Below, piece after piece: positions 3,021 to 55,693 of a stretch of 64,000 bases of DNA. The notes below the pieces were generated by a model. It searched no databases. It was not told the DNA's origin and saw only the letters and a program-made list of their open reading frames with translations. How positions within the stretch are numbered: position 1 is the first letter of the stretch; every line of letters starts with the position of its first letter. This DNA is from Patellaria atrata CBS 101060 (Eukaryota), in contig MU006097.1 in NCBI GenBank assembly GCA_010093705.1, positions 73,905 to 137,904 on the forward strand, written 5' to 3'. Both the position numbers and the translations under genes were made by a program.

Positions 3021-5263
3021 TTAAATCTTTATGATTTCTACCTTTGCCCTTTCGAAAAGCTTATGTCCAACCATCTCTCCCCTTTCCAATTCCTCATCAC
3101 TAACATCACGGGGTAATATTGTCATTCGCGCATAAGTGCCAAACCCCTTTCTCTTAGCCAGGGTACCTGGATTGATGACCATAACATTTTCAACAACCTA
3201 TTTTGAAAATTAGCGATACTGCGTCCATAAGATTGAAGATAGACAGAACTAGGGGACATATATTAGGGACAACTTACAACAGTACAAGGGTCCAGCGCAG
3301 AAGGAGCCAGTAACAGATCAGGTCGAACGTTCTGCCACTCTCCCAACTTCAAATACCCAACATCTAGCGATGCGCCAAATGGTGCCAAATACTCCGCACC
3401 AGGCTCATCCTCTTGACCCTCCACGGGTTCCTCGCTCTCGCTTTTGATGTTTGTCCCTTTCGCGATTTTAACGCCTTCCATTGGAGCAAGAGCCTCTCTG
3501 TCCGTTGGCGGGACTATAGGAAAGAAGGATCTCTGATCAATGAGCTGTTTCGCTAACCTCCGCATAGTCGCTCCTTTATCTATAGTTTTCGCTGCTTCCG
3601 AAATACACTCCTCACGACGAATGGTATAAAGGACGTCTAAGCTTGTCATGCCGACGACGAACTCATTGAAGCTTAGAGTTACCGGATTTGTGACGCTCTG
3701 TACGCCCTTGCCGAGCCCTAGATCACGTTTTGGGAGCCGGTCTTGTGGCCAGCAGGTGTGGTGAGAGACAGCATCGCGGACGCTTGGAACAAGAATGATA
3801 CTGCAACTGGGAAGATTGGATGTGAGGTCTGTAAGGGCGGTAGAGATATGGTAGCGGAAGAGATCAGAGAGGGTAGCGGTGTCAGGGGAGACAGGAAAGT
3901 CATCTGGGAGGGTGAAGGAACCGGTGCGGACAAGAGGGTGCTCGGCATCAATAAAGGGACCATGGAGAATCAGAGCGTCGGCGGAAGCTGAGAGGGCAAT
4001 CTCGCAAAGGGCACGGAGGGGTGAGAAGTCGAGTGTATCATTGGTAGAATAGGGGCCTGCCGCAATAAGGACCGTAAGTGGGTGTGCAGTGTCCGAGTCG
4101 GGTATGGATGTCTGGAGACGAGTGGAGAGTGATACGAGGTCCTGGGGGATGGAAGCAGGTGGGTCCAGCCAAGGCAAGGATAATATCTCCTTGACGGTAA
4201 AGTAGTCCCCGGATGCATTCTGTCCGCGTAAAGCAACTATTTGCCCTGGAAAGAACTCGTAATGCTTGATTGAAGAAACATCAAGAGGTACTCGACGGCC
4301 ACGGCCGGCGCGACGAGAGGTCTCAAGGAGTAAGTTTGCCTTCTGGAGCTTCGCATTGCTAGTATCAGATGCGATGCGTCCTACTGTTACGATCTCCGAA
4401 GTACTCTGGGTGGCGGGATCCCCAAAGTCTTGATCTTCGAGCTTATGGCGCACTTGTACGAGATCCATGAATAGATCGATACGCTCATCGAGGATCTCGC
4501 TACTTTCGGAAAGCTTCATGGCCATAGTTTTGTACGTGAATTTTCCCATGTCAGTATTAGCCTTAAGTTTTATACGGGGTTCCATAGGTGGCGTGGGTAG
4601 TGACTCAGGGGTGAGGATATGGTCATTAAACTCGTTCTCGAGCTTACCAACGTCCCCACGTTTATCAAAATTAATAGCACTACATGTTTGTTAGATATAC
4701 AGATGGTATGAAAGTGAGTGTCTCTTACTGAACACCATTCATAGGGAATGGTACGTTCGACCTGCGTGGCGAGGTCCCTGAACGGTTTTTACTTGCTTTA
4801 GGGGCGGGAGTCTCGAAATTTGACTTCCGTTTGATAGTACTCCCATTTGCGCTGGGCCTTGGTGTATTCGATACAAGACCACCGAGCCTAGAAATCTGTC
4901 AGATCATACCCTTAAGTTATGTGTAGAATGCAAGATAACCCACATTCCATATACATCTCCACTATTTGTAGCCCCTCGGGGTGTTTGAGCAACCTTCTTC
5001 TTCTCTTGACCTCTTGCTGTCTTTTCCCTACTTTCACGTTCAAGTACTTCTTGAATATCTTTTCTCAAATCTCTTGCAGTTTTAATATCCAGTCTGATAT
5101 CTCCTCCCATCTTGATGCTGTATGACTCCCATTTGTAGAACAATTCTTGCGGTGATATAGAGTGTAGTCGAAGAATCGAGGATAGTTCCCTTTCCACATC
5201 TTCAGACAATTGGGTGTTAGGAACAGAGAAAAGGTCATTGAGCGCTTCCGACACGTCCGTCAT
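3021..5263 (-). CDS. POL12: DNA polymerase alpha/primase subunit B
   Basis: Four exons (5263-4944, 4887-4729, 4679-3278, 3197-3021). N-terminal ELFYKWESY motif, plus FFPGQIVALRGQNASG, AAGPY, GPFID and VINPG motifs of the Pol alpha B subunit. Confidence 0.95.
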
Positions 5264-7582: not shown

Positions 7583-7682
7583 NNNNNNNNNNNNNNNNNN
7601 NNNNNNNNNNNNNNNNNNNNNNNNNNNNNNNNNNNNNNNNNNNNNNNNNNNNNNNNNNNNNNNNNNNNNNNNNNNNNNNNNN
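7583..7682. other. assembly gap (100 N)
   Basis: Run of exactly 100 N following an A-tract. Confidence 0.99.
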
Positions 7683-43268: not shown

Positions 43269-45726
43269 ATGGATTCAGGATACCTTGCGCAGCAAGTCAC
43301 CACTATCATCGGCCAATTGCATGGACTATTCGATGAGATAGGTGTGCCTGGTCATGAGAGGGACTCTAGAGAAGCAGAGGTACAACCACCTGCTTGAAGC
43401 GTTACTGATACCTAGAACTAATGCTGATATGCATCTTAGCTTTTCTCTGCCCTCTCAGAAACGCTTCATAACCAGCTGCGACTGGTGACCACGTATGTAC
43501 AAACTTGAGACTTGATTATCTTTGACTGACATATAAACAGGGAGAAGCACGAAATGGCTGAAGAATGCAATCGCTTGATCTCGAATATTAAACAAATGGA
43601 AAGATCTCTTGATGGAAGACAGCAAAGTGGCTATGATATTGACGACCAAGAGTTGAAGGTTACATACCCTTTAACGCGTTGTTTACAAAACCTTAAGGAA
43701 AAACACAATAATATCAGCAAATTACATCGCGAGCGCTTTGAACAAGTAAAGAGTAGGTGTTCTGCGCATTCCACAGGAAAAGAAATCCAGCTAACGTAAT
43801 ACAGAACTTGCGGAAGCAATCGAATCATTCGCATCTCACCTAGAACCATCTTTCGTCATGGTCAAACTTCCTCCAACTTCCCCTAACGCTACAATCTCTC
43901 CTTCTTTTGATGTTTCCCCAGCCTACGTAACGTCCTTGGATAATGAATTCACACGTATTTATGAGGAATACAATAGAAGGGTTTCCGAGGTCAAAGGAAC
44001 CTGTCATGAGATTATCAACATGTGGGCGGAATTAGGTACACCACAAGCTCAGACGGATAGTTCAATCGTACAATACGCTCGCGATCAACCTGAACAGCTT
44101 GGACTGCATCAAGACGATCTAATTCAATTACGCGCTAAGAGAGATAGGCTTGTAGAAGAAAAGCGAGGAAGGGAGCGAAGGGTTAAGGAGCTGAAAATTA
44201 AGATCGAAGATCTATGGAACCGACTAGGAGTTGAAGAGCATGAAAGGAAAGGCTTTCTATCAAGCAATAGAGGATGCAGTTTGAGAACGATCAATGAGTT
44301 TGAGAGTGAACTATCAAGATTGAACGAGCTGAAACGCCAAAATCTACACCTATTCGTCGAGGACGCTCGGTGCAAACTTCAAGAGCTGTGGGATTCATTG
44401 TATTTCTCCGAGGAAGAGATGCTTGAATTTACACCAGCGTTTTCCGGTAAGTTTTACAAAGCAGTCGGGAAATAAGAACGACACTAACAAGGACTAGATG
44501 TATACAGTGACGCTTTACTCTCTGCCCATGAATCCGAGATCGCACGTCTAGAGGCGCTGAAGGAACAACGTGCACCTACGCTAGAACTCATTGATAGGCA
44601 TCGTTCTCTCGTCAAGGAACGGGACGATCTCAGTGCATCGAGTCAAGACGCATCTCGTCTAATGCTTCGGGGCCAGAAAGGCGAAAAACGGGATCCTGGA
44701 AAACTCCTACGAGAAGAGAAGATGCGTAAACGGATCGCGAAAGAGTTGCCAAAAGTCGAAGCAGATCTTAAAAAGACTTTGGAACGTTGGGAGAATGAGT
44801 ACGGCCGTCCCTTCCTTGTACACGGTGAGAGATATCTCGATGAGCTCCTTGCGGCCTCTTCAAGGGCTCCACCACCAAGGGCGAAGACTCCATCTGGACA
44901 TCCACCACCAGCCCCAAAATCTGTCCCTAAGTCGGCTCCCATGTCTCAACGTGGTGGGACCGTTCGCGGACCACCTCCTACCCGCGCGAAGACACCCACT
45001 GCTAATTCGAGCATGCTTAATATGAGCACAACGCGGAACCCTCTAGCAAGTTCAGTCTCTACGTCAACTCTCAAAAGCCCATCGAAGATACCATCTCGAG
45101 TACCACTGAGCAATATGCCGCATGGAAACAACTCCCCCGAGCGTCGTGTAAACGCTAGCAGCAGCGTTAATAACAGTAACATGTATGAAACGATGCGTAA
45201 AATGGGACCACCACGTGCACCTCCACCGAAGATGAAAGATCTATTTGCCCCTCCTGAGCCAGTTCGACACAACTCATACGAACGGGACGTCGAACGTAGT
45301 GCGAGCATCGTCCGCCACATCGACCCAGAAGACGTTTACGACGATCGTGTGCAACGAAGCGGCTCATATGTACAACGATCACAATATCCTCCACAGTACC
45401 AACCTCAAGTCCCCAGTACCAGACAGATCTCAGCAACGTCAAGTATAACGAACACGGTGTCCGGCAGTGAGAACTGGGAAACGTATGATGACGCCTCCGA
45501 TCCAGAGCCGGATGCAACGGACGCGTACTATGATAAGTTGAGACAGGCGAGGGGAAAGAGGTTCACGCCAGATGGCGGCTATCCAAGTCCCAGAGGTGGG
45601 CAAGTCAAGAAGTTCAAGGGCATCATGGCTGTGGGTGTGGAGCAGCAGACTCTCATGGAGACTGAGAATGGGCTTGTGAGAGTAGAAGAGAGCGATGCTG
45701 GATGGACGGATGAAGATGCGTTCTGA
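43269..45726 (+). CDS. ASE1: microtubule bundling protein Ase1/PRC1/MAP65
   Basis: MDSGYLAQQV...LFDEIG...; LQELWDSLYFSEEE, DASRL...RDPGKLLREEKMRKRI; multi-exon with a disordered C-terminus. Confidence 0.92.
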
Positions 45727-47112
45727 AAGTTCAGCTTGACATTCGGGGTTCACGTGTAACCGCATCTAATTCGACTGAACAATTTCATCTTCAGTTGCAC
45801 ACAACCTACCTACAGGCGCCGGCGCAAGCTCGTTTCAATTCTCTTCTCACTCACCATGATTCTCTCGATACTTCGACCTTCTCGGAAAAGTTTGCATTCA
45901 CTTCTTGTGTCTAATTACCGCTTATTGGGGGAAAAGTTTGCACAAAGACTGTTGTCGAAGCGGGTTCGTTGGGGAGATATCGATCCCCTCCACCACCCCT
46001 TTGTCTACATGTCTTTTTTTCTCTTCTTGTTTGGACTTACTATCTGGGCGTCATGAAGCTGACGATTTCTCGCACGGTTACGAACGCTGACCTCATCCCG
46101 TCACTTCATCCCGTTGACACATCATCTTCTTTTCTCATCTTTCCTACTTGCTCGGGGGGAGTTTATCGGCGTCAGATGGACCGGGATGGATTTGTTATTT
46201 TGCAAGTTTTTTCGGGCGAATGGTGGAGTGGCGAATGAGTGGGTTTGGGCTTGTATAGTTACGGTTATTGCATTGGGTAGCTAGGTACGTAGTCGAATGG
46301 AACTAGTGGATAGCTTACCTTACTTTTTTTTTTGAGTGCTTGGAGTGTTCGTCGATGATCAGCTTACTTGGTTGATATGTTAGGTGTCATGGTTTGGTTC
46401 AAGTATCTGGGCTGTATGTGTATGCCAAAGGAAGGAATCGAGAACAACACCTCAGTCGAGATATAAGGTACAGTAGGACTGCACAGATACCGTAACTCCC
46501 GAAAACATCACCGATCCCATTGTCATTTACAACACCGTTTCTACTGCGCCAGAGTTGTACTCTGTAAATCAACAGGGCAGCTGGGAATGGCATCGACGTC
46601 CGTTACGTGTGATAGTTGAGGCTGATCTGTTACACCGGGCACATGATATCGTACACATCGAATTTTCAAGCAGTCCCAGTCTCTTATAAAACTGCACCTT
46701 TTCGACTTCCTTCCCGGTGAAAATGACGACCTCACCCACCAATCCCCTAGGGAGGGGGCGCCAAAACCCGCTCCCACCCGTTCCCCAGATCCCATCAGGA
46801 TCAATAAGCACCGTTTAAAGAATGGAGGGATTTGTGGGGTACATGCCATTAGGCTTGGGATGTGCAATAGATGGGGGAGAGCATACTTACGGTAGGGGTC
46901 TAGAGTGGTGTAGGGGGTGGTGAAGATAAGCATTGTGCGTTTCTCGGGCGGAAAATCATGGACGAAGGGTTTTTTGTGGGGTTTGGAAGTGAGGTGATGC
47001 AGTATTAGTTATACGAGATGATGTGGTTGTGAGTCATGGATACATGGATGTAGGGATGAGGGTTTGTGGTTTTTGGCTTCCTCTGGTGAGTAGGTTTTTG
47101 TGTTCTACTTAT

Positions 47113-48480
47113 TATTGTTGATATCGAGGTGATGAGGTTTGGGGAGAGGGGATGATATCTAAGTCTACAGGGGTGTTTTTGGTGGGGTTATGTGGGTTTA
47201 AGCGATCTTCTAGAAGAGTGCGAAACACAACCTCAATCTATGGTAAGGTAGAATGGCACGGCAGTATTTGCGCAAGAGATAATTTACTACTGAGCTTAGA
47301 GGGAGTAGTGAGAAGGGTCAGTTGCAGTAGATTCGGGTTGAGAGATAAAAAGATTTGCTGTTTTTTCTTCTGTGGTAATCTAACATGAGCGATGACTCTT
47401 AACCTGAAGCTGATAGAGGCAATTCCCGTACGGTAGCAGACTAGGAGTTTGCGGGAGATGTCCAACTTTCTCCTTATCAACGTTCTCGCTCCTGTCTGCC
47501 GTGCTGACACTACTGGCCTTACCCGCGTTTTTCTTCCTCCTAGCTCCACAGCAAACGCTCAGTCTGCGCAGCTGTCTAAGCTCTCGTCTGACGTCTCTGA
47601 TATGTGAATGTGACCGTAGCATACAGAAAGATGATCCCCGCCGCGCGCGTGCCGGCGCGTGCCGAGATTGATTCCAAAACTCCTGACTCCTTCTCGTCAT
47701 AGCCCTCGATATTCAAATCGACAATCAAAAGAACATCTTCTAGCTTAGGGGGTTGAAAGTCCAGTGACACGATCGCAGAGGTTCCCTTTTTTTTTTTTTC
47801 GTCCGGCTTTAGTAGGTCTATCCTTCTAGGCATGCCCTGCCGGAGGAAAATGGGCGGATGTTGGGAGAGCTTTATACGCTCCCTTGGGTCTGTCACGCAA
47901 GGCTTTAAGACGCGTCATTGGATCGTGTGGATGCAATATTCGGGGGGTAGGGAGACCGGTTTGAAACCGAGGCGTCTCCATCCTGGATAGTTGTACTGAG
48001 TATAAGCTGGGCAGAGCTGCAAGCAACTGAATAAACATATAGAGAGGATAGGAGGGGGAATATGGGAGGGGGGTTATGGAGGAAGGGTTCACTGGCTGAT
48101 GGGTGGTGAAAAGGTGGGGCAGCCGGTTACGCCGGGGCGTCAACCTTACCCAACCTTCGGGGCGATCGGGACGTCACTGCGATCGGCACCAACGGGGGTG
48201 CCGTCTTGCACCAGCGCTCGAAGCGGCATGGGGTGAAAAGATTAACGATAGACGGGTGTTTATTGTTCAATGTTTATACATATGGCTTTCGAAATCGAAT
48301 AAGCTGATAGGGTTAGAATCGGCTTCTTGGAGCATTAGCAACGAGGCAACCAAGCCAGCCCGAAGGAGTCGAGGAGTTCGTGGGTATGCATGGCTTGGAA
48401 ATAGGATTCAATATGCAGGAAAATGTATGCAGAGTGGATGCAGGATTGAATGGAGATTGTTTTCGAAGAATGGATGGAGA
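47113..48480 (-). ncRNA. TER: candidate telomerase RNA (TER); 5' end approximate
   Basis: Template CUAACCCUA 48316-48308; boundary hairpin 48360-48321; enclosing helix 48378-48362/47693-47678; pseudoknot 47860-47796; terminal helix 48465-48444/47238-47221; AUAAGU 47112-47107 plus branch point 47010-47004. Confidence 0.85.
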
Positions 48481-50229
48481 ATTATGAGATATCGAGATAT
48501 ACCAGCTTGATCTCATGTACTCGATGCATATTTGGGAACGCTGAGAATTGGCTGAGAAAAACTCCTATCGCGGTATATGAGGGTGAGACCAAGCTTATTG
48601 GGCATCTCTTCCGAACCCCAACGCCGCACACGACATGTATGTTGTCGCGGCACAGCATAATTAATTGCCAGTATGGGAGTATGGCAGATGAATATGTAGT
48701 ACAGTTCTCGATGAGTGATGATTGATGAGCCTAAGCGCGTCCTCAACATGGTTTGAAGGTTTCCTTTTCCCCCACCCCAAGTCTCCCAAGACGTCAAGAA
48801 TCATCCTTATCAGCGACGACAATAGTTACAGCACATTCTAAACGGTCCCTAAACCCAGTTCGGTAGTATTCAGAGACTTTAAACTGCTTCTCTACCGCGA
48901 TAATTTCGTCTCACCTACCGTATCCCGTCGATTACCGATCGTTAACTTTTGAATCGCAGCCAGTGATGGTGTTGATCTCCATTCAGCCAGCCAACCATGA
49001 GAACGAAGACATCCAACAAGCAACACACCATCCTGAAAAGAAAAGCTTCCGATATGGTTTCAACATAGGTCGTAAACCTAATCCTGCCTTGCTGCAGCTC
49101 TTCCCAGTAGGTTTTTATGTGTGCAGTGCCTCCCCACGCGTTGCCACAGGCCCACATTTACATTCCCCACAGCCCTTTGTTTAGCTATGACTCTGCGACA
49201 CGTAGGCGACAGCTGAGGCTGCTGAACAACAACAAGAGTGAGGTGCACATACTTCGTCCGACACGGCTCCTGAATATCCCAACCACCTTAAGCTATCATC
49301 ATCTCTGCCTCAGCTCATGAGACCAAAGGGGGTACATGTGGCCCCCTCTGTCTATCCTTAGCGTTTTCACTGCAACCTGATCCCGAGACACAAATAACCC
49401 CTTTTGGCCTTGACTTCTCTTAGCACGGCCCATTATCCACCTCGAAAGTGATTTGAGATTTATCAGGCTGAGTACGAACGATATATATCGAACCTCAGAA
49501 ACTTCATGTCTCATCACTCCAAGTTTCCCACCTTTCCCACCTCCTATAACCAGAGTTGGTTATCTACTTTCAGCCATACGCGGGATATTAGCTCTAAGGA
49601 GAAGGTTCGCCTCGGCAGAACAACAAAGTCCTTTTTCCCCTTCCCTTCCCTCCCCTTCGATCCCGAGTCCCCGAGTGACCCGAAGTAGCGAAATATTCCA
49701 GAACTCAAGCCCGGTCCAGTCTGTGCAGATTATCTTGTCTGTGCAGTGAGTAAAAGCAATAAGATAATAATAAGTGGAAGTTACCTTATTACGAAACATT
49801 AGTTCCAAGGCCTTTCCAGACCAGGGGGGGGGGGGCGAATCAACGTGTCACCTATTTTTCGCGCGTCACCGACTGAAATCATCGATCATCCCATCGTAAA
49901 CTTGGAAACTAGACGGGTCCCAAAGTACCTGATCTACGCTACCACACCCAGTCACCCACGATTTCCCTATCAGCTGCTACCTGACGCTGCTTACCTGCAA
50001 ACCTGCAAAGCACATACACCACGGGAGGACAAGTAATTATTACATTTGCGAAAAAAAAAAGAAGCTTTTCGTCGCCCCGCTAGACACCTTCAGCTTTATC
50101 AAACTCTTAATTACGTTACCTGGTTATCTGTCTTTTTTTTCCATTATCGTTTACTCACCACTTTTCTTATTCTCTCTGTGACTCCTCCCCGATAATCACC
50201 TACTCGCGTGCCATACAATATACTCCAAC

Positions 50230-51684
50230 ATGATGGTACCACGCTCCTTCATGTTTCGACCACACACTGTGCGAGCAGAGGAACATAACGAGAAGAACGA
50301 TATGTCAATAAGAACACGTCCCCCCTCCGGAACCAGGATAAGGACTCCCGTTAAGCCAACGCAAGCTACTCAACCTGTCGTCATACCCACCCGCACCCAA
50401 TCTTCGCCCTCTACAACAAAATCAACCCAGACGCTGAACGTGAGAGGCCAGCGTGCAGCCCGTACTTCTCAGAAGCAAGATGCACATAACCCAAGGGCTG
50501 TCCCACCGGCTGTAGCAGCACTCCTGGCTGTGACTTCCATCCCACCTCCTCGAACAAACACAACACGACGGACCATCTCCTCATCAAGGCGACTGTCGAT
50601 CGAAGAGTTGGTGCAGGAATGGAGAGCAGAAGCCAAGGAAAGCGCGAGTGCAGGTTATGGCTCCCCGTTGGACATATTGTTAGAGGGTCAGGAAAACTGC
50701 GAGTTCGACACAACCAGTCTTTGTGAGGATTGCGATGTGGAGTCCATGAGCACGGTATCGTCGCGTTCGAAATCCAGCGATTCCATCCCATCACTGGAGA
50801 GTGACAACCAATCCATCCTTTCAAACTCGAGCATCCCCACCCCTCCTTCGACCATCCGCCGCTCGACCGGCGACCGGAAAGACAGGATAGTGAAGCCTCC
50901 TCCAACAGAGGACTGTATCTATAATCATCCGCTTCTTTCCTTTCAAAATGATATCGACGATCTCCCTACTGAAATTCCTGTTTCTACCCTTCCCCGAAAG
51001 CAAGCTCGACGGAACAGCAAATCATCTTTCAAGTCAAATCTCACTGCATCTCTCAAGGCCCTCAAATCAGCTGCGAAATCTTTCTCAAACTTCACCGCAC
51101 CCACCATCCCTCCAGAGGACCTCCTCACCCGTTCACTCTTATTCCCAGGATTTACAAGCGAGATGCGACCAAGACCATTATCAGGCCCACCAGATGCGGC
51201 GCTACGCAGGTACCTCAACCCTACAACTCCACTCACGACCACGGAGCTCGGAGTCCAACTCCATGGATACGACCGGCTCCGTGAAGAATGTCAAGACTGT
51301 CCCATGATCCAGATGCAGACCTACGACGCGAAGACGATACGCCAGCGCAAGCGTAGAACCCGCTCTCTCGCGACGGCTCCTCAGCCTGTTTCAAAGCCGC
51401 AACAAGATGTACCCGAGCCACCAAAGCAGACCACAGTGCGACAGCGCGAACCACGCGAGAATGCCGATTTCCTAAGAGTGATCGTCCTCGAGATGAACAT
51501 GAGGCGCATGGGGAAGCTGGACGCAAGGGCCATGGGTAGAGCGAGGTTGTGGTTGCCGCCAAGGACGGCCGAGAAGGTAGAGAGTGACAGTGGGTCCGAA
51601 GGCGAGGAAGACGCGGCTCCAGAAAAAGGGAGGCGAAAGGTTCCTGGGAGATGGAGGGGCGTTAGTGTTGAAGATTTCGATTGA
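50230..51684 (+). CDS. conserved fungal hypothetical protein (Ser/Pro-rich)
   Basis: Intronless 484 aa ORF. Blocks PPAVAALLAVTSIP, FKSNLTASLKALKSAAKSFS and RQREPRENADFLRVIVLEMNMRRMGKL look conserved among the low-complexity sequence. Confidence 0.8.
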   Translation: MMVPRSFMFRPHTVRAEEHNEKNDMSIRTRPPSGTRIRTPVKPTQATQPVVIPTRTQSSPSTTKSTQTLNVRGQRAARTSQKQDAHNPRAVPPAVAALLAVTSIPPPRTNTTRRTISSSRRLSIEELVQEWRAEAKESASAGYGSPLDILLEGQENCEFDTTSLCEDCDVESMSTVSSRSKSSDSIPSLESDNQSILSNSSIPTPPSTIRRSTGDRKDRIVKPPPTEDCIYNHPLLSFQNDIDDLPTEIPVSTLPRKQARRNSKSSFKSNLTASLKALKSAAKSFSNFTAPTIPPEDLLTRSLLFPGFTSEMRPRPLSGPPDAALRRYLNPTTPLTTTELGVQLHGYDRLREECQDCPMIQMQTYDAKTIRQRKRRTRSLATAPQPVSKPQQDVPEPPKQTTVRQREPRENADFLRVIVLEMNMRRMGKLDARAMGRARLWLPPRTAEKVESDSGSEGEEDAAPEKGRRKVPGRWRGVSVEDFD

Positions 51685-53387: not shown

Positions 53388-53597
53388 TCATGGATTCTCC
53401 CTCATGATTCCAGAAGCGGATCCTAGACAATTCGACCTCGCACCGCGCTTCGAGCTATCTTCCTGGATGGACCTTCGCTCTAAGCCGGCCGTGCTCTGCA
53501 CAGTAGCCTGCCTCTGGGCGTTGGAGCTGTCGGATGAATTGGTCGAGAAGCTGTGGATTGAGGAGCCTCGAGATCTGTTTTCGCTGGATGACGACAT
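53388..53597 (-). CDS. possible small Ser-rich protein (69 aa)
   Basis: ATG at 53597 after a C/A-rich leader: MSSSSENRSRGSSIHSFSTNSSDSSNAQRQATVQSTAGLERRSIQED...; no recognised domain. Confidence 0.35.
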   Translation of the reverse strand: MSSSSENRSRGSSIHSFSTNSSDSSNAQRQATVQSTAGLERRSIQEDSSKRGARSNCLGSASGIMRENP

Positions 53598-55693
53598 TTG
53601 GTGCTGGATTTTGTTTAGTGAGGCGTTCGTGTTGTGTGTTCCGAGGAGTAGGAAAATGGCACTTACAGGAATTCTGGGTGGAGTGGGATGGACTATAGGG
53701 ATGGAACAGAAGTAGAGATGTACTATCAATGTCAAATTTGGGGGTTTCAGTTATAGTCAAGAATCTATCTTACAGCTAGGAGTGGACTGTCACTAGCGGT
53801 ACCTATCGAATAGTTCTGATGTGCTTGAAAAACAAATTTTGGGATTGAGGTTCTGTTTGAAGAAGGAAAAATTGACGTATTGGGAAGAACAAGAGGAATG
53901 TCTGGAATGGGGAGATAGTGTCACTTAAATGCGGCTCAAATTTCAAACTGCCAATTTCTATAAATGACTATACAGATAGTTTTGACCCGTTGACTGCCTA
54001 AAAACCACTCGTAACGAGTTCCGGTCAACATTTGATCTTACTTCATGGTCACATCCGCTTTTATGTCAGTAGGTGGGATTCCGGTGAAGGAGGTCTTAGC
54101 TTGTGAGTAAAAGACAACCATATTTTTGATGGAAGTATATCAGTAACATATAATGACTTTAGCTGTTCAACATCGGAGAGGAAGAGTGAGAGATTCGGAT
54201 ATCAAGATAGTCTAAACGTGCTAGAACATAAAGATGTTCGGCTTATGTACTACACGGTACTCGAAGCCCGCCTTTGAGGGTGGTCAATCCACTTGTGCAA
54301 ACATGTGTTCGCCATCGACGTCTCTTCGAATCACCATTTACACAAAACATCAGTTTGACGCCTTGCCGGTTGGTTTCGTAAGGCTGCGTGCAGAGATTCT
54401 GCTGGGCGTTGCGAGCGGTGAAGGGATCGGAGGCTGTGAGCCTGAAGAATCAGGAGTACGATGCAAAGTGAGGTTAGACTAGGGTTAGGGCTGTGTTCGG
54501 TTGATATCCGGGAGAAGATGTGTGTTGTTAATTCTCATCTTTCTCGTTGCCTACAAAAGCAAATCCTTCACCGGTCAGTAGAACTACCTATCTTTCGACT
54601 TGGCTGCTTCCAATATACAACTCCGTCTCGTCATGTGCAAACCGCTTTCATCCGGTGCCCCGGGCGTTTGGCATAGTAAGTCTAGTTGTCGTATGAGGTG
54701 ATGGTGCATGTATATTGATATGGGCCGATACAAGTTCTTAGACAAGAACTAATTCTCACCCCTATATTCTAACTGAGCCATGCTCGCCTCACTATCATCA
54801 GGCTGGACGTCTAAAACGTTTACCATATCACCAGGCTAATCGGGAGTTGGCTTTGAACGCCCGGTTTTCTCACTCTTTTTTGGATGCAACTCTATCCGCC
54901 GAAGCGCAGAACTGGAACCGTAGTATTATCACGGAATTGGAGTCGATCTAATTTGTCTCGACACTAAAGATCTGCGTGAATATAGTCACCAAGTAACGGG
55001 ATTAAACTATGCAGATAGCCGGATGGTCTGCTGCCGCCAAACCGGTGTCTGTCGAAGTTGAGAAGACGCCCGTCAGCAGCTAAACGCGTCAACATACCGA
55101 CGAATAGGGAGACCGGTGAAAAATATTGGAACAACGATACTGTAAACATACCCGGATTTTAGGTAAAGGCTGTACTGGTCGCCTTGTGGGCTTGCTGGCA
55201 TTGACTGATTTACGCCCGGCTTCGCCCCGTATCCTCATACCTCCTCCATCAGATTCCGAGGTAAGGATGCATTCCTCTTCCGTGGACCAGTCAGCTCCAT
55301 TTGATTTTCATCCTGTTATCTTTATTTTCATTCTGATATGCATAAACTTGTTTGCGTTTTCGGGAATATGTCCCACAAAATCTCCTCCTCTGCGGAGTAT
55401 CGTTTCGAATCCTAGGCATATTGTAGATCTAGACAACCTTAAAGAGGTACATAAATCATCATCTATTCCGGCTTCACCTTGCCTCACTTTTCTCTAATAC
55501 TCTTTCTTCTCTTAATTCAGCCATACCTACGGGGCGCAGCCTCAGTCTTATTTCAGTTGCCTCGAACATATTATGACTCCCTGAGCGCTGCTGGTAGCCC
55601 AAATCCTTTTATCGTGCACATCATTCTGACTTTGTGATCACGAGTCATCCTAAATCCAAAACCCCTGAACGTCATCCAGTCTCAACCATCAAC

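Follow-up and report, generated by a model that had tools for sequence, protein, structure and literature searches.

Telomerase RNAs evolve so fast that most fungal genome annotations miss them. Does the gap downstream of the ASE1 gene in Patellaria atrata CBS 101060 hold such a gene? We examined a 64-kb stretch of contig MU006097.1 (64,000 nucleotides; here referred to as the window), in which a first-pass annotation had placed an unlisted telomerase RNA gene. Our tentative reading, to which we give somewhat less than an even chance, is that the minus strand from ~48.45 kb to 47113 is the P. atrata telomerase RNA gene, ~1.35 kb in length. Taken as a whole, the analysis neither supports nor refutes the telomerase RNA claim, and from it we cannot tell.

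All of the sequences quoted by the first-pass annotation were found at their positions. Along the minus strand, to which all features below belong unless otherwise stated, the order is the 5′ arm of a long-range helix, a hairpin, a template-like 9-mer, the 3′ arm of the same helix, a junction-like fold, the hexamer AUAAGU and the hexamer ACUAAU. The 5′ arm, AACUCCUCGACUCCUUC (48362-48378), and the 3′ arm, GAAGGAGUCAGGAGUU (47678-47693), close a domain of 669 nucleotides (nt) and would form the core-enclosing helix of the RNA. The claimed pairing of 16 base pairs (bp) with one bulge was confirmed, as 7 + 9 bp around a bulged C. The duplex has an energy of -24.5 kcal/mol, and in the partition function of the 1368-nt RNA its pairs reach probabilities of 0.98-1.0, so that it dominates the predicted ensemble. 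Both the order of the sequences and the predicted stability of this helix are direct observations. The 721-nt enclosed domain had a folding z-score of -2.38 (1 of 20 shuffles was equal), which we counted in favor of a telomerase RNA.

Among the five elements of the first-pass annotation (this helix, the hairpin, the template, a pseudoknot and an outer helix), the long-range helix is the only unusual one, being rare as a repeat and not by its energy. Near-perfect inverted repeats, defined as at least 16 bp with one bulge or mismatch and with arms 100-2000 nt apart, occurred twice in the window, the helix included, while ten Markov shuffles held a mean of 0.3 (0-1 each). Fungal DNA from the metagenome loci described below held 52 in 959 kb, or 3.5 per 64 kb. 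Long-range inverted repeats are therefore 10 times commoner in real fungal DNA than in shuffles, and the arms could also be the terminal inverted repeats of a decayed mobile element of 700 bp, with the 9-mer being incidental. The 669-nt distance between the arms suits such an element, which would also account for the greater length of the gap compared with six relatives. We nevertheless consider this explanation very unlikely, as no other copy of an arm or of the 1.8-kb region was present in the window, no target-site duplication was seen at the arm ends and no transposase-like open reading frame (ORF) was found by the Pfam search.

The hairpin, the candidate template boundary element, lies at 48321-48360, ends 4 nt before the template and has an energy of -11.4 kcal/mol; its proposed role would be to set the 5′ limit of the template during reverse transcription. 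The 9-mer CUAACCCUA (48308-48316), described as 1.5 copies complementary to TTAGGG, is present as claimed and would be copied into TTAGGG repeats. For another Dothideomycete, telomeres were called with TTAGGG (PMC8146201), and no telomeric array was found within the 64-kb window.

To these we added a three-way-junction-like fold and the AUAAGU hexamer, both weak additions, each within or near chance. The fold (47199-47298) consists of a P5 stem (UAAGC/GCUUA), a long P6 hairpin and a P6.1-like stem (UCUU-CUAG-AAGA) of 4 bp with an N-U-N-G loop (CUAG). It is the minimum-free-energy structure of a 111-nt stretch ending 85 nt upstream of AUAAGU, and may represent the second TERT-binding element. 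AUAAGU (47107-47112), a candidate 5′ splice or cleavage site, directly follows the end coordinate of the interval in the first-pass annotation, lies 1.2 kb downstream of the template and, as ATAAGT, occurs just once on this strand within the 4.5-kb gap; the 13 copies on the minus strand of the whole window weaken the signal. With this site, the mature 3′ end would fall at 47113, produced by the first splicing step as in Aspergillus. The branch-point-like ACUAAU (47004-47009), 103 nt away, is the only such site in the 220 nt after AUAAGU. Every function named here, as well as both RNA ends and the transcription of the region, is proposed from sequence.

How far does this arrangement agree with known telomerase RNAs? 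In Aspergillus, the 3′ end of the telomerase RNA lies at an atypical 5′ splice site, AUA(A/C)GU, with a branch point after it, and is made by the first splicing step (PMC3603654 and PMC4299874); some hundreds of nt upstream of this site, these RNAs have a compact P5/P6/P6.1 junction (PMC3603654). The candidate shows the element order of the Aspergillus and Penicillium RNAs described there, through AUAAGU and the branch point, and its elements also follow the order of the Neurospora RNA (PMC3592445). CUAACCCUA is in the register of the A. fumigatus and human templates and, as in Aspergillus, is preceded by (A/U)UC, with a flank, UUCUAACCCUA, that resembles AUCUAACCCUAA of A. fumigatus (PMC3603654). 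The 4-bp P6.1-like stem with a 4-nt N-U-N-G loop is also like that of Aspergillus (UUAG there, CUAG in the candidate), as is the location of the locus in an ORF-free gap. About 74 telomerase RNAs have been described from Pezizomycotina and Taphrinomycotina (PMC3592445). With those of N. crassa and 72 other Pezizomycotina, the candidate would share a 1.5-repeat TTAGGG template, core-enclosing helices and a boundary element, all three putative here, and, like them, it has no canonical Sm site.

The candidate also departs from these RNAs in several respects. Unlike those of Aspergillus, it has neither the conserved blocks searched nor the CRCGDCGCG promoter motif, no hairpin followed by a CGGC(3-5)U(7-12) Sm-like tract precedes its AUAAGU, and its branch point lies ~103 nt from the splice site as compared with ~35-40 nt (our count from the alignment in PMC3603654). 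In the Pezizomycotina junction, P6.1 is a 4-bp stem capped by a 5-nt NUNGN loop, and an A separates P6 from P6.1 (PMC3592445); a P6.1 with this 5-nt loop was not found on the candidate strand around the locus (46300-49000), nor was the PK1/PK2/PK2.1 pseudoknot described in the same paper identified. At ~1.35 kb, the candidate would be smaller than the 2035 nt mapped for A. oryzae (PMC3603654) and than the sizes reported in PMC3592445, such as 2049 nt for N. crassa and 2425 nt for the Dothideomycete M. graminicola.

The surroundings of the candidate may tell more. It lies in a 4.5-kb gap, called ORF-free, between ASE1 (C-terminal MAP65/ASE1 ORF at 44488-45723, plus strand, Pfam PF03999, gene end at 45726) and the next gene, a 500-codon ORF that we refer to as X500 (50182-51681, plus strand, start near 50230). 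None of the 21 ORFs tested in the gap was matched by a Pfam family at E up to 0.001, Pfam alone having been searched; ORFs of 100-135 codons, compared with Pfam only, are present inside the candidate. The gap sequence has no second copy elsewhere in the 64-kb window, and two DNA contig runs (X1 and X2, from one sample) span the whole 11 kb without differences. P. atrata is a Dothideomycete. The C-terminal ASE1 ORF is 100% identical to a protein attributed to P. atrata CBS 101060, while the next best hits reach 65% and the nearest ASE1 relatives 65-74% identity, which marks P. atrata as a phylogenetically isolated lineage.

An ASE1 alignment of 30 proteins (out of 120 listed) was used to fetch 80 metagenome loci. 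Six of them (L001, L035, L040, L043, L045 and L049) keep the gene pair, with an X500 homologue downstream of ASE1 and oriented alike, which makes this an old adjacency; the gap between the two genes is 1.5-2.4 kb in these six versus 4.5 kb in P. atrata, which suggests that the P. atrata gap holds something extra. Being 2-3 kb longer and unique among the loci compared, the P. atrata gap would fit an inserted gene. When the gap was set against those of relatives, as the first-pass annotation had proposed, no counterpart of the candidate appeared in the six syntenic loci, a point against it. The best blastn match of the 4.5-kb gap to the 80 loci was of 20 nt (E 0.028), and tblastx against the same loci returned no matches; this lack of coding similarity and the lack of Pfam matches count in favor of a telomerase RNA. 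Telomeric 8-mers were not enriched near ASE1 across the 80 loci.

Could all of this be coincidence? Perhaps the gap is ordinary intergenic DNA, in which the 9-mer, the inverted repeat and the remaining motifs arose by chance and independently, and were singled out since as a set they look like a telomerase RNA; to this we assign about one chance in three. Against it stand five features that follow one another as expected over 1.3 kb of an ORF-free gap, the rarity of the long-range helix as a near-perfect 16-bp repeat (the 2 in the window as against 0.3 in shuffles) and a gap longer than in relatives by 2-3 kb. On the other hand, each element taken alone is within or near chance, and the observations that follow weigh against a telomerase RNA. 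By arithmetic, counting both strands, one window should hold ~0.5 copies of the exact 9-mer and ~3 copies of 9 nt of the telomere repeat in any register. A partner 200-2000 nt downstream let 1.8% of 1500 random 17-mers reach -24.5 kcal/mol, and 21% of 336 random anchors offered such a 17-mer at most 80 nt upstream. The hairpin proved ordinary and within chance, although its existence was borne out: an equally good one ended 2-8 nt upstream of 11% of 600 random anchors, and the 67-nt fold around it was no more stable than its shuffles (z = +0.16; 103 of 200 equal). As drawn, the hairpin has an ensemble probability of 0.18 in the 1368-nt RNA because a G-run at its foot favors pairing with the CCC of the template; by this pairing 6 of the 9 template bases are predicted to be paired, with unpaired probabilities of 0.21-0.32.

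Local folding and similarity searches point in the same direction. Six 140-nt windows across the candidate folded like shuffles (z -0.75 to +1.64). The junction region gave z = -0.62, and the junction descriptor matched 20 times in 128 kb; these counts come from a revised descriptor, as the first version had caught neither the candidate junction nor that of the second site described below. No 4-bp P6.1 bearing a 5-nt NUNGN loop was found on the minus strand between 46300 and 49000, and there is no U-rich Sm-like tract ahead of AUAAGU. Rfam gave no match at gathering score over the window, and at E up to 10 returned noise only, for the candidate and the second site alike. The CS4 motif and the junction motif (in two forms), both of which are invariant across the Aspergillus alignment, had no match in the window, while the CS3 motif had 21 matches against 21.8 expected, none of them in the candidate. 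The promoter motifs CRCGDCGCG and CACGTG are absent, and the ASE1-X500 gaps of the six relatives contain no telomeric 8-mer.

One of these relatives served as a control. In L035, a telomeric 10-mer, CTAACCCTAA, has a 16-bp inverted-repeat arm 130 nt upstream and an ATAAGT 1.6 kb downstream, and the site falls within a 175-codon ORF starting with ATG. Since this combination is found inside a coding ORF, such combinations do arise by chance. Adjoining the control ORF, a tRNA-like sequence (GGCCGTGTGGCCCAATGG...) was observed at L035 ~3290-3360 (minus strand).

Two of the elements in the first-pass annotation fared less well than the rest. An outer helix, said to close the whole fold, does consist of two existing sequences, but their pairing is not above chance: the duplex of -13.4 kcal/mol, a further point on the negative side, was matched by 86% of 500 random 22-mers, and its pair probabilities are 0.15 or less in the 1368-nt RNA. 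A pseudoknot inside the enclosed domain, for which no coordinates had been given, was not verified. A strict vertebrate-type triple-helix descriptor found no match. A second descriptor, modelled on the Aspergillus pseudoknots of supplement S3 of PMC3603654, found one weak, AU-rich match in 1421 nt where 0.12 was expected, on a background of 11 matches in 128 kb. In this match, a weak stem-1 hairpin (47708-47737; GAUGUU/AAUAUC) carries a U4 tract and GAUUUG in its loop, and CAAAUC (47352-47357), preceded by GAAGAAAAAAC, is a possible stem-2 partner of GAUUUG. This second strand lies outside the long-range helix, which misfits the Aspergillus topology.

Put together, the elements would describe the smallest Pezizomycotina telomerase RNA seen so far (~1.35 kb), moved into the ASE1 gap in the P. 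atrata lineage. Its core-enclosing helix would be unusually long at 16 bp, its P6.1 would carry a loop of 4 nt, it would lack an Sm-like site, and one pseudoknot strand would fall outside the helix; for this joint description, our confidence is low, at little more than one in three. Against the telomerase RNA reading in general stands the small prior, estimated at ~0.2% for a ~35-Mb genome, of meeting the one telomerase RNA gene in any given 64-kb window. We combined this with the chance rates of the helix (0.5%, from the repeat density, to 21%), the hairpin (11%), AUAAGU (~25%) and the junction (~6%), and also took in the location in a long ORF-free gap and rough probabilities of each feature in a true telomerase RNA. 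The combined odds for a telomerase RNA, by our own rough estimates, ran from below 1:1 to ~10:1, and the negative findings together with the freedom in descriptor choice pulled them down.

A different role for the 9-mer has to be considered as well. In yeasts, such telomere-like boxes mark the promoters of ribosomal-protein and small nucleolar RNA (snoRNA) genes. A TATAAA (48273-48278) follows the 9-mer at a distance of 30 nt on the minus strand, which adds to the case against a telomerase RNA. The 9-mer might thus be a promoter box for a Myb-type TTAGGG-binding factor which, with TATAAA, drives some other minus-strand transcript from ~48.24 kb, and would itself be untranscribed. Boxes of this kind also occur just upstream of genes in other loci: CTAACCCTA lies ~80 nt before an ATG in L043, and in L033 and L034 a telomere-like 13-mer lies ~175 nt before the start of the ASE1 match, which suggests that telomere-like boxes also act as promoter elements in these fungi. 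The arrangement in P. atrata, in which a TATA box comes after one 1.5-repeat box, is like that of telomere-repeat promoter boxes. Unlike with such boxes, however, no gene with a Pfam match and no known RNA family was found downstream, and the box is flanked by a hairpin and a long-range helix, neither of them required for a promoter. By arithmetic, chance alone would place a TATA hexamer within 100 nt in a few percent of cases, and both the long-range helix and AUAAGU are left unexplained. We regard a promoter box as unlikely here, at roughly one chance in seven. Separately, a G-strand telomere-like box, GGGTTTAGGGA, was observed at 48843-48853, ~530 nt upstream of the candidate template.

Is there a better place for a telomerase RNA in the same window? 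A longer template-like match on the same strand, the 11-nt CCCUAACCCUA (54480-54490), which also tells against the candidate, lies in the next gene-free gap, beyond X500 and 6 kb from the candidate. At most 220 nt after it, a P5/P6/P6.1 junction (54272-54347) has a P6.1 (GUGG-AUUGA-CCAC) whose four Watson-Crick pairs and NUNGN loop agree with the definition in PMC3592445. This junction is the minimum-free-energy fold (z = -2.32; 6 of 200 shuffles equal), and AUAAGC (54243-54248) comes after it by our reading. If the window holds a telomerase RNA at all, it might then lie at this second site, for which we see only a slim chance, and a few chances in a hundred go to the notion that at positions 54490-54250 a filamentous fungus has a telomerase RNA as small as those of vertebrates, ~350 nt. 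No long-range helix was found nearby, the best upstream duplex having -16.9 kcal/mol; the nearest hairpin ends 21 nt from the template-like match; the Aspergillus-type descriptor gave no pseudoknot candidate; and the 601-nt region has z = -0.71. In addition, the spacing between template and junction is ~10 times shorter than in the mapped Pezizomycotina RNAs (2035-2425 nt), far too short for a fungal telomerase RNA; the site itself fits a promoter box.

The second site thus more likely belongs to a promoter than to a telomerase RNA, and it shows how easily telomerase-like sets of features assemble in this DNA. The match lies ~0.9 kb upstream of a 69-codon, Ser-rich ORF starting with ATG (53388-53596), maybe an unlisted small gene downstream of this second box. 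An intron-like stretch (GTAAGT...CTAAC...CAG; 53604-53667) ahead of the ORF resembles an intron of a 5′ untranslated region. This arrangement at the second site also speaks for reading the 9-mer of the candidate as a promoter box.

If the telomerase RNA reading of the candidate is true, the locus would be a further member of a known family and not a new kind of system, and its interest would be moderate, through its small size and new genomic position. Once confirmed, it would give a data point on the variation of size and architecture from an isolated Dothideomycete lineage and a tool for telomere work in this group, and would leave unchanged the picture drawn from the ~74 Pezizomycotina and Taphrinomycotina RNAs. 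More generally, in fungal genomes a telomere-like 9-mer with plausible helices is insufficient to call a telomerase RNA, because such boxes occur in promoters too and comparable helices are common.

A few minor observations were made along the stretch. Inside the candidate domain, a run of 13 A (47788-47800) is flanked by the pairings UCCGGC/GCCGGA and CCCAUUUU/AAAAAGGG, which together would form one long irregular hairpin. A 9-nt direct repeat, CUUUUCACC, is found inside the candidate at 48233-48241 and 48105-48113, 128 nt apart; both copies are U-tracts and could face the A run. At 55203-55338 there are weak matches to C/D-box snoRNAs (SNORD99, 17.6 bits; sR52, 15.9 bits), both well short of gathering score; UGAUGA- and CUGA-like boxes are also present, and the stretch may be either a snoRNA or noise. 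A run of 100 N at 7583-7682 is an assembly gap or a masked stretch.

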